IMG/VR virus record: IMGVR_UViG_3300042291_001013
Origin: a virus
Taxonomy: Duplodnaviria > Caudoviricetes
Direction: 5' to 3' (one strand)
Length of the DNA stretch: 64,000 nucleotides
Under the pieces are notes generated by a model. The model searched no databases, was not told the origin of the DNA, and saw only the letters and a list, made by a program, of their open reading frames with translations. Each line of letters opens with the position of its first letter. Positions within the stretch are counted from its first letter, which is position 1. This document shows positions 1-4,969 of the stretch, piece by piece. Both the position numbers and the translations under genes were made by a program.

Positions 1-286
1 GATCACTGTGTGCTTTTGACAGGTATCCAAAGATACCCATACTGGTCAGTATCATGAGAAACGCCACGGCCGGTATGAGATACACCTTAAAGGCCCAACC
101 AGCACGTTTCCAGTTGTTGTGCAACCATACTGTGGCTGCAATCTTGCCTAGTTCTAGGCTACCGCCCATGATGATAACCGGAATAGTGGCCGCACTAAAG
201 ATGGCCACCAATCCGGCTACTGAGTAATAAGCAGCCACCATGCTTAACAACAATGCGGTGGCGAGAATAGCAAATCCAAATATCAT
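1..286 (-). CDS. Conserved phage membrane protein (partial, runs off the left edge)
   Basis: Manual translation MIFGFAILATALLLSMVAAYYSVAGL...LTSMGIFGYLSKAHSD; several hydrophobic helices; TAAATA 7 nt upstream. Confidence 0.8.
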   Translation of the reverse strand, partial: MIFGFAILATALLLSMVAAYYSVAGLVAIFSAATIPVIIMGGSLELGKIAATVWLHNNWKRAGWAFKVYLIPAVAFLMILTSMGIFGYLSKAHSD

Positions 287-292
287 AGAATA

Positions 293-604
293 TTATTTAT
301 TTTGTGTTTTTAATACCCTTACTGCTAGTTTAACGGCGCACCAGGTAGCAAACTTTTCTTCAGGTACATCAAACCACACAGTCTCGGCTTTTTGAGTATA
401 CTTGTGTCGTTCCAAACGACGTTTGACATGGCTTTGACTGCGCCAGTCTTTATTATACAGTGTTCGAGCTTCACGCATCACAGTGTACCACTGTTGAGCG
501 TTGTCAAACTCAAACCAAATACGGTGCATGACCAAAGGCGTTAATTCAAGCGAGTCAATTGATTCAGGCATGCTCAACGCAGAGGCCTCGATGTTGACAG
601 TCAT
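293..604 (-). CDS. Hypothetical protein
   Basis: ORF track 293..694; likely start MTVNIE at 604, after AGAAAGG SD-like sequence. Confidence 0.7.
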   Translation of the reverse strand: MTVNIEASALSMPESIDSLELTPLVMHRIWFEFDNAQQWYTVMREARTLYNKDWRSQSHVKRRLERHKYTQKAETVWFDVPEEKFATWCAVKLAVRVLKTQNK

Positions 605-793
605 TACTAACCTTTCTAGATTTATCCTCTTGGCATACCCCCGGGGTACCAGCCCAGGTTTTAGCCTATTGCTAGGCCGAGGTCCTTGTCGCAACCTACG
701 GGATTTATGTTTATTGTGCCACGGAGCCAGACAGGCCTAGGTTATCGATTCACCCCGCCCGGCCTTTAAACGACCCAATCTCTTTGATCATGC
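605..793 (-). ncRNA. Candidate structured RNA or long 5' leader
   Basis: GC-rich non-coding stretch downstream of a perfect promoter; GCCTA-GCAA-TAGGC GNRA hairpin plus several long-range complementarities. Confidence 0.45.
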
Positions 794-799
794 ACTGTA

Positions 800-828
800 A
801 TTATAGCAGTGGAGACTGGAGTTGTCAA
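800..828 (-). promoter_or_regulatory. Perfect sigma70 promoter
   Basis: TTGACA-17 nt-TATAAT. Confidence 0.9.
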
Positions 829-852
829 TAACTTGTTTTGCCGTCTTGGGGG

Positions 853-1263
853 TTATTCACCGTTCCAGCTTTCGCCAGTGTCAGTGTTTGTGAGCTCTAA
901 AGGACCATAGAAGTGATACTCAGTATCGTCGCATGACCAGCCCAGGCCTTCCAGGCCATCAAAATAGTCTTCTTCCCAGGCGGCTTCAAGCTCTTGTTGT
1001 TCTTGTTTGGTCATGTCATCGGGATAAGTCCAATCCGCCCAGCACCCATCATCAAGACTGTCCAGTTCCCAGTCATAGTCAGTAAAGCCAAGCTCGTATC
1101 CGTCGGGATTTTTAAGATCAACGTCGGGACGATCTTCGCTTTCGCAATAGAATGCGCCCCAACGATAGCCTTCTTCACGAATGACTGTGCGCCCATCCTT
1201 GGTCCAAAATTGTCGTTCAACAGCGTTCTTTTTTTGGTAAGCTGACAGTTTCCAAGTAGCCAT
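853..1263 (-). CDS. Hypothetical acidic, Trp-rich protein
   Basis: 136-aa ORF tightly packed in the operon. Confidence 0.75.
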   Translation of the reverse strand: MATWKLSAYQKKNAVERQFWTKDGRTVIREEGYRWGAFYCESEDRPDVDLKNPDGYELGFTDYDWELDSLDDGCWADWTYPDDMTKQEQQELEAAWEEDYFDGLEGLGWSCDDTEYHFYGPLELTNTDTGESWNGE

Positions 1264-1265
1264 TT

Positions 1266-1949
1266 TTAATCTTTCTTGATGCCAAACAACTGTAACAAGT
1301 TGATAAACAGATTGATAAAGTCCATGTACAGTGTAAGTGCTCCGATAACTTCTTCTCGTCCGGTATCACTGTCTACACTAACTGCTTCGCGAATCTTTTG
1401 CGTATCGTATGCAGTTAATCCTAGAAAGATAATGATAGCTAACGCACTGATAACCATTTGCATAACAGTTGAGCCAATAAAGATGTTCACAACACTGGCA
1501 ATGATAATGGCAATCAGACCAATCATCATGAACTGTCCCATGCTGTCTAGACTGCGTTTGGTAAAGTATCCGTAAAAGCTCATGGTACCAAACAAGATGG
1601 CCGCACCCATGAACGCACTCACAATCGACCCCATGGTGAACACAGCAAATATTGTTGCCATGCTCAGACCCATTAACGCCGCAAAGCCATATAGGAACAA
1701 CTGTAGTTGACTCTTGTTGAAGTTTTCACTGGCAAACGCAAAGGCCAAGATTGCCAACAAGGGTGCAAAAATCACAATCCACTTGGTGACGCCTGTGAAA
1801 AAGAACTGTAGCAACTCTGGGCTGGTGCCCACAAAGTAGCTCACAATCATTGATACAACAACTGCCAGACTCATGTGTCCATACACACGGCCCATGGCTG
1901 AGTTAACTTGCTCTGCTGAGCGATAGGTGTTTAAAGTTTCGGTATACAT
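1266..1949 (-). CDS. Bax inhibitor-1/YccA family membrane protein
   Basis: About 7 TM helices; motifs AYDTQKI and GALTLYMDFINLFINLLQL; start MYTET at 1949. Confidence 0.9.
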   Translation of the reverse strand: MYTETLNTYRSAEQVNSAMGRVYGHMSLAVVVSMIVSYFVGTSPELLQFFFTGVTKWIVIFAPLLAILAFAFASENFNKSQLQLFLYGFAALMGLSMATIFAVFTMGSIVSAFMGAAILFGTMSFYGYFTKRSLDSMGQFMMIGLIAIIIASVVNIFIGSTVMQMVISALAIIIFLGLTAYDTQKIREAVSVDSDTGREEVIGALTLYMDFINLFINLLQLFGIKKD

Positions 1950-1953
1950 TATA

Positions 1954-2274
1954 TTAGTCATCCTTTTCCATAGAAAGCACTTCACGTACCAAGCCTACTA
2001 ATTCGTCTTCGGTGCCGCACATGATCTTGGCAGTTTTGTAGTCATTTTCTTCATCACGACCACTGACTTCGATCATGTATCCGTTGTCATAACGATAGAT
2101 GGTAAACGATTCGCTAACCTTAGTTAGCTTGTCGTTAAATTTATTTACACTAGCAGTTTTGGCTTTGGCCATGGGGTTCTCCTTTGAAAATTCAATACTG
2201 ATTTCGTCTAGCTGACGAATAAGCTCTTGTTCAGAGAGCTCTACTATGTTGTCTATTTGCTTTTTACGCGGCAT
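1954..2274 (-). CDS. Hypothetical protein
   Basis: ORF track; alternative start at 2172 with AAGGAG SD. Confidence 0.7.
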   Translation of the reverse strand: MPRKKQIDNIVELSEQELIRQLDEISIEFSKENPMAKAKTASVNKFNDKLTKVSESFTIYRYDNGYMIEVSGRDEENDYKTAKIMCGTEDELVGLVREVLSMEKDD

Positions 2275-3175: not shown

Positions 3176-3599
3176 TATGTGCTTTCAAGGGTGTGCCTTT
3201 GAGGCCAGAAATCATTTGGAATTTGTCCCAAGCGTCTTTAACTGTTGGAGAGTTTTCTAACTCGTCGTCGGCTACTATTGTTTCAAGCCAGTAGTAGGGC
3301 AGTCGGGAAGGCCGTGCGCCAAACTTACGGGGCTGGTGCAGTTTGCCGCTGTCATAGAGTTTAATACTAACGTCTCGAAACTTGGCTTCGTCTTCAACAG
3401 GATAGTCCATCCATTCTGGGTTACTAAAGGGATTGCCAAAAGTTTGGCCGCCGCCGTATCCAGACCAGATACCGGCCCACTGCTCGTCATCACGTGGGTC
3501 AAAATCTGTACGAGTGATTAACACTAGCACATCATTGATGTCTACCTTGCTATCCACAATGTCTCTAATGCAACGGCTGTAACTGAGTCCAACTTTCAT
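3168..3599 (-). CDS. Hypothetical protein
   Basis: 143-aa ORF with an ATGA overlap to the ligase stop. Confidence 0.75.
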   Translation of the reverse strand: MKVGLSYSRCIRDIVDSKVDINDVLVLITRTDFDPRDDEQWAGIWSGYGGGQTFGNPFSNPEWMDYPVEDEAKFRDVSIKLYDSGKLHQPRKFGARPSRLPYYWLETIVADDELENSPTVKDAWDKFQMISGLKGTPLKAHNE

Positions 3600-4969
3600 A
3601 CCTTTTCTCCTGCGTCAAAGTCACGGAATCTCAAGAACCTGGGGAATCGGAGTGAGTAGGTTCCGTCTTGGTTTTGGGTAACTGCGTCCGCTTGGACTTC
3701 AACCAAGTGACCAAGTAAGTGATCCCTATTGGTCCAATACTCATCACGAAGAGCATCGCTAAAGCCAGTACCAACATTAACATAAATTCTACGGTCATTG
3801 TCATCTCCTTCACAAATTATAGCACCCAACCGGCCTGCATTGCGACCAGTTCCTTCTTCAAAACCCACAATGTTCAAATCAACACTAATGGTGGGTTTCC
3901 ATTTCATCCACGAGTCTGAACGTTTACACTCGTACGGTGCATCCAGGCTCTTGATCATGATGCCTTCAAAGCCTTCGGCAACACAATCCTGTGCATACCG
4001 ATTCATGATGTCATGTCCTTCAGCTGTGTCCAAGTCCACATCCAGGCCGTTCATGATACGCAAACAATCAGTGTCCATCAACTGTGTTTTGGCACTGTCA
4101 ATCCATTCAATTCTTTTGTACTGTTGCAAGTTGCAGTGGCCTTCTTTGAGGGCATCCAAGGGCAAGATGTCAAAAATATGATACACCATGTTATCAGTTT
4201 TGGCATCGCTTTTACGATGTGCTTGCTTCATGAGTTTCTGAAAACTCTCGCCCACAATCTCACCGTCTAACACAAAGTGACCACCTGTACCGCGACCCCA
4301 CTGGAATGCCTTGCGATTATCTAAAATAGCTTCTGCAATCTGCGGGAAGTTTTCAAACTCCTTGCCATTTCGACTAAACAGTGTACAAGCATCACCTGAA
4401 ACCACAGCCAATACACGTACCCCATCCAGTTTACATTCCAGGCGTTTGATACCTCGGAGCTTTTTGGGCTGGTCTGTTGAATCCTGTGCTAACTGGCATG
4501 AGAACACTGGAATCCGGTATTCAGTCTTGCCCACAACCTTGTTAATGGTCTTTTCGGACACACCGCATCGCAAATCCTTGATCAGCACACGTCGAGCCAG
4601 GTTGTTCCATTCATCACTGTCAAACTCATCAGCACATTCTTGAATGGCGTCACGTGCGCGATGTCCACTAATACCTCGTGTGCGCAGGTCTTCTAGCAAG
4701 GCCCAAAAACGCGGCCAAGGATTATCGCGCCCGGTTAAGTCTGTAGTTTCAGGAACTTGCCGAACGTTGAACGCATAAAAAGGATTGTAGGCTTGGTAGC
4801 AGTTAAACAAAAAACACTGTGCATCGGCACTGCCCAACCTGGCCGCCATCAGAGCTTTTTCAATAACTTTCTCCTTGTGTATGCGGCTGTCCGAACTTTC
4901 TAGATCACGAATCCAGCCTGCCGCCATTACACCGCCAAATCTTTCGTTTGAGAAATCAGTTTCATTCAT
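3596..4969 (-). CDS. lig: ATP-dependent DNA ligase
   Basis: Ligase motifs ECKLDGVR (adenylated Lys), LDGE, EGIMIK, WMKWK; C-terminal OB-fold SLRFPRF. Confidence 0.95.
   Translation of the reverse strand: MNETDFSNERFGGVMAAGWIRDLESSDSRIHKEKVIEKALMAARLGSADAQCFLFNCYQAYNPFYAFNVRQVPETTDLTGRDNPWPRFWALLEDLRTRGISGHRARDAIQECADEFDSDEWNNLARRVLIKDLRCGVSEKTINKVVGKTEYRIPVFSCQLAQDSTDQPKKLRGIKRLECKLDGVRVLAVVSGDACTLFSRNGKEFENFPQIAEAILDNRKAFQWGRGTGGHFVLDGEIVGESFQKLMKQAHRKSDAKTDNMVYHIFDILPLDALKEGHCNLQQYKRIEWIDSAKTQLMDTDCLRIMNGLDVDLDTAEGHDIMNRYAQDCVAEGFEGIMIKSLDAPYECKRSDSWMKWKPTISVDLNIVGFEEGTGRNAGRLGAIICEGDDNDRRIYVNVGTGFSDALRDEYWTNRDHLLGHLVEVQADAVTQNQDGTYSLRFPRFLRFRDFDAGEKV

Follow-up and report, generated by a model that had tools for sequence, protein, structure and literature searches.

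A conserved, structured messenger RNA (mRNA) domain of about 270 nt was identified in a 64,000-nt stretch of viral DNA (Duplodnaviria; Caudoviricetes; IMG/VR record IMGVR_UViG_3300042291_001013), the whole of which is referred to here as the window. The element is encoded on the minus strand, extends approximately over positions 524-793, and comprises the full leader together with the first 27 codons of p105, a gene (293..604, minus strand) encoding a 103-amino-acid (aa) protein. It probably serves as a cis-acting translation or stability element of the operon that it heads. Positions within the RNA are numbered such that RNA position n corresponds to window base 798 - n.

A single fold spans the leader and 27 translated codons

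An earlier interpretation made from the DNA letters (the sequence-only reading) had proposed a transcribed, structured RNA of about 190 nt with possible pseudoknots, and had named conservation and covariation in related phages as a check. That check was decisive. The final model comprises 78 pairs in 16 helices, with 92.2% of cells paired as opposed to no more than 44.7% for slid controls, and 44 of the 78 pairs were found to be changed on both sides. Its covariation score was 0.347, compared with 0.06-0.10 for the slid controls, and none of 500 shuffles reached the model. Leader helices were derived using alignments A1, A2 and A5 and RNAalifold, and those within the coding sequence (CDS) using an extended-region alignment and a scan of all column pairs; an earlier model restricted to the leader had given 87.9% paired cells on A2 (31-45% in slid controls). 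The helix that closes the fold, termed LR, is recovered in the minimum-free-energy structure of the 274-nt RNA, and the centroid adds helices P5 and P8. Besides its covariation-supported helices, the conserved core contains invariant junction nucleotides, as riboswitch aptamers generically do; the invariant unpaired nucleotides are CAAAAC, GUAGG-UGMGAC, the GUA preceding UGCC, and CCGUGGCA.

The proposed end of the RNA at the ATG did not hold, as the fold is closed by a helix of 12-14 bp formed with codons 23-27 and thereby encloses the Shine-Dalgarno sequence, the AUG and 27 codons. The 5' strand of LR (782..795, minus strand; RNA 3-16, core 5-16) pairs with 524..537 (RNA 261-274), which encodes P-L-V-M-H. 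Over its 14 pairs, 93.5% of cells were paired and eight pairs had changed on both sides, with pair types including AU:26/GC:15/UA:2, UG:17/CG:13/GC:7 and GC:32/AU:11 and almost no mismatches. This pairing is also visible in the protein, residue 25 (V/P/D/T/S) covarying with leader positions 10-12. A second leader-CDS contact, LR2, joins 689..692 (RNA 106-109; GCGA here and GAGA in other clades, inside the invariant UGMGAC) to the UCGC at 550..553 (RNA 245-248) in codons 17-19. LR2 was 100% paired, and its middle pair, in which the partner is the wobble base of Ser18, was CG in 25 sequences and AU in 18 with zero exceptions.

Between these contacts, codons 3-17 form one long hairpin with a conserved UGCGUU loop (domain III, 554..598, minus strand). 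Its outer helix, Pc4 (598-594 with 558-554; RNA 200-204 with 240-244), was 99.5% paired and encloses both Pc1 (588-585 with 569-566; RNA 210-213 with 229-232), which was 98.8% paired and changed on both sides at all four pairs, and Pc2 (584-582 with 575-573; RNA 214-216 with 223-225). Residues 7 and 13 covary (T-F, A-P, G-P) because their codons pair. A further candidate hairpin in the CDS, Pc3 (RNA 233-237 with 242-246), was only 79.5% paired and was replaced by Pc4. A loop-linker pairing of GCGUU (RNA 218-222) with AACGC (RNA 256-260), paired in 67-100% of cells without compensatory change, remains an unproven candidate.

Codon usage agrees with this extent of the fold. Among sequences sharing the same amino acid, synonymous-codon entropy was about 0-0.45 in codons 1-33 and about 0.6-0.95 beyond them, and the open reading frame (ORF) was kept in all copies, with CDS insertions and deletions (indels) in multiples of three. 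Synonymous variation was also low in the last approximately five codons of p105 (window 293-307), probably because the ribosome-binding site of the downstream gene is located there.

The translation initiation region (599..617, minus strand) is a 19-nt unpaired linker between helix PKb of the leader and Pc4, and holds the Shine-Dalgarno sequence AAAGG (615-611; RNA 183-187) and the AUG (604-602; RNA 194-196). It is the only sizeable unpaired stretch and, with domain II of the leader and the domain III hairpin, lies inside the junction closed by LR2. Relative to the start codon, PKb ends at -14 and Pc4 begins at +7.

Leader domains and pseudoknot

Upstream of this linker, the leader is organised in two domains. 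Domain I (700..776, minus strand) is a stack of helices with an apical region at 753-736. At its base, P2 (776-773 with 704-700; RNA 22-25 with 94-98) contains one bulged U and covaries at three of four pairs, and P3 (771-767 with 713-709; RNA 27-31 with 85-89) covaries at every pair. P4 (766-763 with 724-721; RNA 32-35 with 74-77) is invariant, and P5/P5b (762-754 with 735-727; RNA 36-44 with 63-71) covaries at eight of nine pairs. The apical loops of P5 (736-753) contained palindromes of at least 6 nt in 31 of 33 distinct sequences, with a mean length of 6.5 nt compared with 3.2 nt in shuffles. These self-complementary 6-10-mers differ by clade (AUCGAU, AGAUCU, UAGCUA, GUUCGAAC, AUCUCGAGAU), and a second apical palindrome is frequent (CCUAGG, CCCGGG, ACCGGU). 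These palindromes may fold into a short hairpin capped by a palindromic tetraloop, or may serve kissing-loop dimerisation.

In domain II (618..685, minus strand), a basal helix composed of PKb (685-683 with 620-618) and PKa (682-679 with 629-626) surrounds hairpin P7, the invariant CAAAAC joiner and hairpin P8 (658-640; RNA 140-158). Once LR takes the place of the formerly assumed closing helix P1, PKa/PKb (RNA 113-119 with 169-180) becomes a nested helix. At least six complementary forms of PKa were observed (CCUC/GAGG, CCAC/GUGG, CUUC/GAAG, CCUU/AAGG, CCCU/AGGG, CUA/UAG), and the mean duplex energy of native PKa/PKb was -7.1 kcal/mol, compared with -5.3 kcal/mol for cross-clade and -4.4 kcal/mol for shuffled combinations. 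P7 (678-663; RNA 120-135) has a GCAA loop here and GNRA or UNCG loops among the homologues, where its length differs by 4, 7 or 8 nt. A candidate loop-loop contact (RNA 58-61 with 146-149) was 92% paired in three of its four pairs, with mostly one-sided changes. Separately, an AGG at RNA 101-103 could pair with CCU at 116-118 (window 680-697; 83% paired, without covariation), and this pairing, which competes with PKa, might matter for switching.

The two domains are tied together by PK2, the sole true pseudoknot, which bears out the expectation that some pairings would cross. The GGCA at 717..720 (RNA 78-81) pairs with UGCC at 632..635 (RNA 163-166), within the invariant GUAUGCC; PK2 was 98.8% paired, and pair 78-166 occurred as GC:34, AU:4 and GU:4. 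P1 itself (GCAUG, RNA 5-9, with UAUGC, RNA 161-165) was dropped, as it lacks covariation and is absent in the divergent leader variant V2 described below. In one homologue (L100), the change U8C breaks P1 and is compensated in LR, and the 3' strand of P1 serves PK2. The GCAUG/UAUGC complementarity is nevertheless 99.5% paired and invariant in V1, the variant to which the window copy belongs, and it competes with both LR and PK2.

Two of six helices named in the sequence-only reading were therefore recovered by covariation, namely the GNRA hairpin at 664-677 and TGGCA/TGCCA (717-721 with 631-635). The other four (AGGT/ACCT, TACCC/GGGTA, GCGGGGT/ATCCCGT and CCTAGG/CCTGGG) were jointly 75.0% paired, compared with 75.3% in shuffles, and were abandoned.

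Promoter and transcription start

The promoter that had been recognised at 800-828 (minus strand) is indeed a perfect sigma-70 site, consisting of -35 TTGACA (828-823), a 17-nt spacer, a TG extended -10 and -10 TATAAT (805-800). It matches the consensus at 12 of 12 positions and is the sole perfect site within 3 kb. Among 61 distinct homologues, TTGACA was kept in 52, TATAAT in 53 and the 17-nt spacer in 57. The probable transcription start is at 793 (minus strand), the G of GCAUG at RNA position 5 and the first base of the LR closing helix; this G lies 6 nt past the -10 hexamer in 58 of the 61 homologues. The LR pairs at RNA positions 5-16 are conserved and those at 3-4 are not, which is consistent with a start at 793. 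Judged from promoter spacing, the transcript very probably begins at, or within 1-2 nt of, the first LR base. On the opposite strand, the only promoter-like match within the element (10 of 12 positions, at 594-622) is at chance level, with six such sites observed and 5.7 expected. As had also been stated, no long ORF lies between 605 and 795, where the only candidate is an in-frame TTG extension of the downstream gene.

Homologues and distribution

Homologous loci were collected from IMG/VR using the downstream 103-aa protein (nine loci) and the 136-aa protein encoded upstream (63 loci). In the closest loci, nucleotide identity from the -10 box to the ATG was 82%, compared with 56-59% for the flanking protein. 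A degenerate pattern of the invariant blocks matched 95 IMG/VR stretches, representing 67 distinct sequences, and the cassette of promoter, RNA and gene is thus shared by at least 95 IMG/VR contigs from related freshwater phages. A covariance model built from V1 homologues (R1) found exactly one copy in the window and scored homologues at 129-188 bits. Each of the 65 distinct V1 copies was followed, at a short and constant distance, by the same gene, p105. Among cellular genomes (185,579 prokaryotic species, one genome each), the pattern gave 11 matches, all of which failed the covariance model and were rejected as chance.

The assignment to no known family was borne out. A scan of the 64-kb window with Rfam 15 (4,227 models, including riboswitches, ribozymes, RNase P, transfer-messenger RNA (tmRNA), GOLLD/ROOL and freshwater motifs) gave no match at gathering thresholds, and at E <= 10 window positions 500-950 matched only CRISPR-DR18, at 14.9 bits, which is noise. 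None of the Rfam ribozyme models matched the element.

One homologous locus (L102) carries a p105 copy of 91 aa without residues ~18-35, the segment that includes the LR2 and LR 3' strands; this shortening could be a natural deletion or an assembly artefact.

The p105 protein

The p105 protein consists of an acidic, disordered N-terminal tail (residues 1-25), encoded within the RNA fold, and a basic ferredoxin-like domain, with isoelectric points of 4.3 and 10.1, respectively. In an AlphaFold2 model (pLDDT 76.8), the N-terminal 25 residues are disordered and are followed by a beta-alpha-beta-beta-alpha-beta domain, for which fold searches gave nothing more specific than generic matches of ferredoxin-like or ACT-like type (best Z 6.9). 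The p105 sequence matched neither a Pfam nor a PHROG family, and no gp32 or SSB domain was found in it. Its relatives, 207 close clusters and 75 more distant representatives, were phage and metagenome sequences only; those with names were all hypothetical, and none carried a Pfam domain.

A divergent leader variant and homologues without the RNA

A divergent leader of 240-250 nt, V2, heads a p105 subfamily that is about 39% identical; it was found at L179-L183 (~260 nt upstream of the match start), L215, L216 and L223. V2 keeps the order of conserved blocks (CCRUGGC, AGUCC, GGNUGNGGCAC, a hairpin, CAAAAC, a hairpin, GGGAGU-NN-GCC) and is not detected by the V1-based covariance model. In all of the eight V2 sequences, three of which are distinct metagenome sequences, a bipartite helix (-15 to -21 kcal/mol) joins about 15 nt at the 5' end to CDS positions 33-47, and it includes a compensatory change from GGGG/CCCC to UGGG/CCCA. 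Furthermore, M26 (AUG) of V1 is replaced by L (CUG) in V2, and this is matched at the 5' end by a change from GCAUG to GCAGU. By eye, V2 also appears to retain an equivalent of the PK2 pairing.

A member of the p105 family follows all eight V2 copies. Metagenome sequences gave 29 matches to a V2 pattern, six of which (three distinct) are followed by the p105 WF.VPD motif and were taken as real; behind the remaining 23, some of them at a contig end, no p105 gene was seen. The V2 pattern scan of IMG/VR yielded nothing beyond three contigs already found, and Rfam gave sub-threshold noise only on the V2 loci.

In three further homologues the RNA is absent and the protein starts at about residue 22 (MENKTLHRIYV...), directly behind a promoter, with the membrane-protein partner of p105 kept. 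At these loci (L184, L185 at 1486-1758, and L210), a GTG start lies ~5 nt past a TATACT -10 box, and their mRNAs may be leaderless or nearly so. V1 is thus associated with a long-tailed protein, V2 with a short-tailed subfamily and the lack of RNA with a tail-less protein. As the RNA-less homologues also lack the tail, RNA and N-terminal tail are present or absent together, and the tail looks like translated structural RNA.

Function of the element

The operon headed by the element, on which it is presumed to act, encodes p105, a membrane protein of ~500 aa and, further downstream, ClpX and ribosomal protein bS21. A fully paired 5' end would protect the mRNA against 5'-end-dependent decay. The closed fold would limit 30S binding, because Pc4 begins at +7 and PKb ends at -14, so that initiation would depend on whether the fold is open or locked, and each translating ribosome would have to unzip Pc4, LR2 and LR. 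The trigger may be a product of the operon itself: the ferredoxin-like domain of p105, which is basic and rich in aromatic residues, would bind and lock the fold. Autogenous repression by p105, analogous to that of T4 gp32/RegA or of ribosomal-protein leaders, is tentatively put forward as the most likely trigger, since the linkage to one gene and the co-divergence with the protein fit it best. Of the earlier suggestion of a ribozyme or riboswitch-like leader, the leader part stands, in that the element is not a free-standing gene, while no result here singles out a ribozyme or a riboswitch for a small molecule. Being strictly associated with one gene, the element is somewhat more in keeping with an operator of translation that is specific to that gene and possibly autogenous.

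Several observations weigh against control of translation or stability in this form. The p105 protein has no recognisable RNA-binding family, its fold matches being generic (Z <= 6.9), and the Shine-Dalgarno sequence and AUG are unpaired in the conserved model, so that the secondary structure shows no obvious repression. A switch would be marked by a mutually exclusive alternative structure that covaries, and none was found; the ~75 invariant nucleotides and some 15 helices are far above the needs of known protein operators. The transcription start is placed by promoter spacing, not mapped. Folding energy, which the sequence-only reading had named as a possible refutation, formally counts against a structured RNA: the 191-nt stretch folds no better than dinucleotide shuffles (-57.1 compared with -57.8 kcal/mol; z = 0.16), and the z-score of the 274-nt element is also weak (-1.23). 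Finally, the homologues are related sequences, so that the shuffle statistics overstate independence, a concern reduced by the slid controls and by the many distinct pair types.

A broader interpretation, which we hold to be somewhat unlikely, is that of a new class of large regulatory RNA, in which a sensor domain would enclose its own ribosome-binding site and start codon, recruit 27 codons as strands and let pairing dictate the N-terminal peptide. Such an RNA may dimerise via the apical loops or sense a factor other than its own product.

Were the element a riboswitch for a small molecule or ion, its junctions would form a ligand pocket, and binding would shift the balance of closed and open states around the start codon. 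The large pseudoknotted architecture, the many invariant unpaired nucleotides and the position directly on the translation initiation region are in keeping with this, and the invariant GCAUG/UAUGC complementarity, as a competitor of LR and PK2, could form transiently in their place. That complementarity, however, shows no covariation, is broken in L100 (where LR is compensated) and is absent in V2. In addition, riboswitch classes normally head several ligand-related gene families, whereas this element is tied to a single non-metabolic one (65 V1 and eight V2 copies), is absent from the cellular genomes searched (185,579 species) and matches no Rfam aptamer. A riboswitch is accordingly judged improbable.

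A constitutive role without any sensor also appears doubtful. Here, the sealed 5' end would block RppH and RNase E, and the scaffold would hold the Shine-Dalgarno sequence and AUG open in an RNase-resistant body. This would account for a 5'-terminal helix that starts at the inferred +1, for the location of both initiation signals in the only long unpaired stretch, and for early expression from a consensus promoter. A single 5' hairpin suffices in known cases, however, and ~75 invariant positions, the pseudoknot, the possible loop-loop contact and two deeply diverged variants would be left unexplained. The RNA-less homologues, moreover, manage with a very short leader or none.

It is less credible still that the RNA is itself the functional product (a ribozyme, a ribonucleoprotein partner of p105 or a self-associating RNA) and merely happens to share a transcript with the gene, which is read through it. 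Its size and conservation resemble those of large orphan RNAs, and RNA and protein tail appear and disappear together. The fold, on the other hand, needs codons 3-27 of a frame-kept ORF, no terminator or processing signal lies between RNA and gene, and no ribozyme model matches. The self-complementarity of the P5 apex is of the type that drives kissing-loop dimers, but a short hairpin, P5c, with a loop of 4 nt is another possible reading of the palindromes.

The absence of any RNA structure, with DNA-level sites or an upstream ORF extension in its place, can effectively be set aside: an in-frame ORF of 133 aa from a TTG at 694 does cover 605-694 and the palindromic hexamers could be protein-binding DNA sites, but leader indels are not multiples of three (4, 7 and 8 nt in P7), variation is compensatory pair by pair even for pairs 250 nt apart, and the palindromes change in sequence yet stay self-complementary.

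Comparison with known systems

A description of this RNA was not found in the literature searched; overlap is possible with the 8,495 unnamed structured-RNA candidates that Fremin et al. (2023) predicted in IMG/VR, including gp32 and gp20 leaders (PMC10690425). The T4 gene 32 leader and the candidate structured RNAs (csRNAs) upstream of gp32 and gp20 (PMC10690425) are similar to a cis-acting p105 leader in being pseudoknotted 5' leaders of a single gene in T4-type phages. Their products are thought to control their own translation, and the csRNAs were likewise found by comparative analysis of IMG/VR. In contrast, a different gene lies downstream here, and the element exceeds those leaders several-fold in size, pairs with the CDS to close and has the start codon inside; binding by p105 is a proposal only.

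A 5' stabilising stem of the ompA type leaves at most a few nucleotides of the 5' end unpaired; the p105 leader may resemble it, its conserved helix starting at the base that promoter spacing predicts as +1. Autoregulatory leaders of ribosomal proteins (L20, S15, S4) are 50-150 nt in length and mimic ribosomal RNA sites, their proteins being known RNA binders. They share with the p105 element a strict linkage to, and co-inheritance with, one protein family and pseudoknots at or near the initiation region, and in both cases the ribosome may be entrapped or excluded; 27 codons of the ORF are built into the p105 fold but not into theirs. In hok-type mRNAs (fbi/tac fold-back) and in the leader of the MS2 maturation gene, long-range pairing decides the use of the start site and folding kinetics matter. 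Long-range pairing of the extreme 5' end, backed by coupled covariation, is common to these systems and the p105 mRNA. Here, however, the ORF encodes a soluble, basic protein of 103 aa and no small toxin, antisense RNA or RNA-phage genome is involved, the 5' end pairs with a segment 70-80 nt inside the CDS, and the Shine-Dalgarno sequence is not the paired segment.

GOLLD, ROOL, OLE, raiA and HEARO (Rfam) resemble the element in their complex folds, invariant junction nucleotides and strong covariation. GOLLD and ROOL also occur in phages, and the self-complementary loops seen here might mediate self-association. No sequence or structure match to these RNAs was found, and they are free-standing, whereas this element is part of an mRNA with translated codons.

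Structured RNAs that are this large and conserved and belong to no family are rare, and earlier cases led to new biochemistry (riboswitch classes; GOLLD, ROOL and OLE assemblies). It is unusual for one fold to span a leader and 27 translated codons and to seal the 5' end of the mRNA. With N-terminal amino acids following the RNA pairing at several positions, the element provides a clear example from nature in which RNA structure prevails over protein sequence, and the two deeply diverged variants that track two p105 subfamilies, together with tail-less relatives without RNA, constitute a ready-made evolutionary experiment. Placed at the head of an early operon that continues into ClpX and bS21 in abundant giant phages of fresh water, the element may show how the take-over of host proteostasis and translation is timed or gated, and it is compact enough for direct structural and reporter work.

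Phage setting and neighbouring genes

The window derives from a giant freshwater phage of the T4-like type. Its genes include a ribonucleotide reductase, a DnaB-type helicase, an ATP-dependent ligase and a tail-spike-like protein, and every gene around the RNA element is carried on the minus strand. The window DNA gave no match in the INPHARED phage collection in near or distant modes, and no tRNA or tmRNA gene was found in it using ARAGORN. An identical copy of the 103-aa protein is present on contigs of up to 361 kb.

The p105 stop codon (293-295) is followed by the start of the membrane-protein gene (2..286, minus strand), with its ATG at 286, which runs past the window edge. At all loci with sufficient sequence except L136, this protein of 465-526 aa begins 4-6 nt past the p105 stop, and the gene pair is kept in V1, V2 and RNA-less forms. 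The membrane protein has N-terminal transmembrane segments and a coiled coil, and its C-terminal part weakly matches PHROG 11591 ('virion structural protein'). At locus L001, where it spans 3325-4773, the next genes are those for ClpX and ribosomal protein bS21.

Two genes upstream of the element, positions 1266-1985 (minus strand) encode a BAX-inhibitor-1/YccA-type membrane protein (Pfam Bax1-I, E = 2.9e-53). The gene directly upstream (853-1263, minus strand) encodes the acidic 136-aa protein, relatives of which occur in 63 IMG/VR contigs (L010-L072). The RNA cassette was located within 3 kb of these relatives in only six of the 63 (L025, L028, L029, L058, L059 and L062), suggesting that the cassette moves relative to its neighbours.

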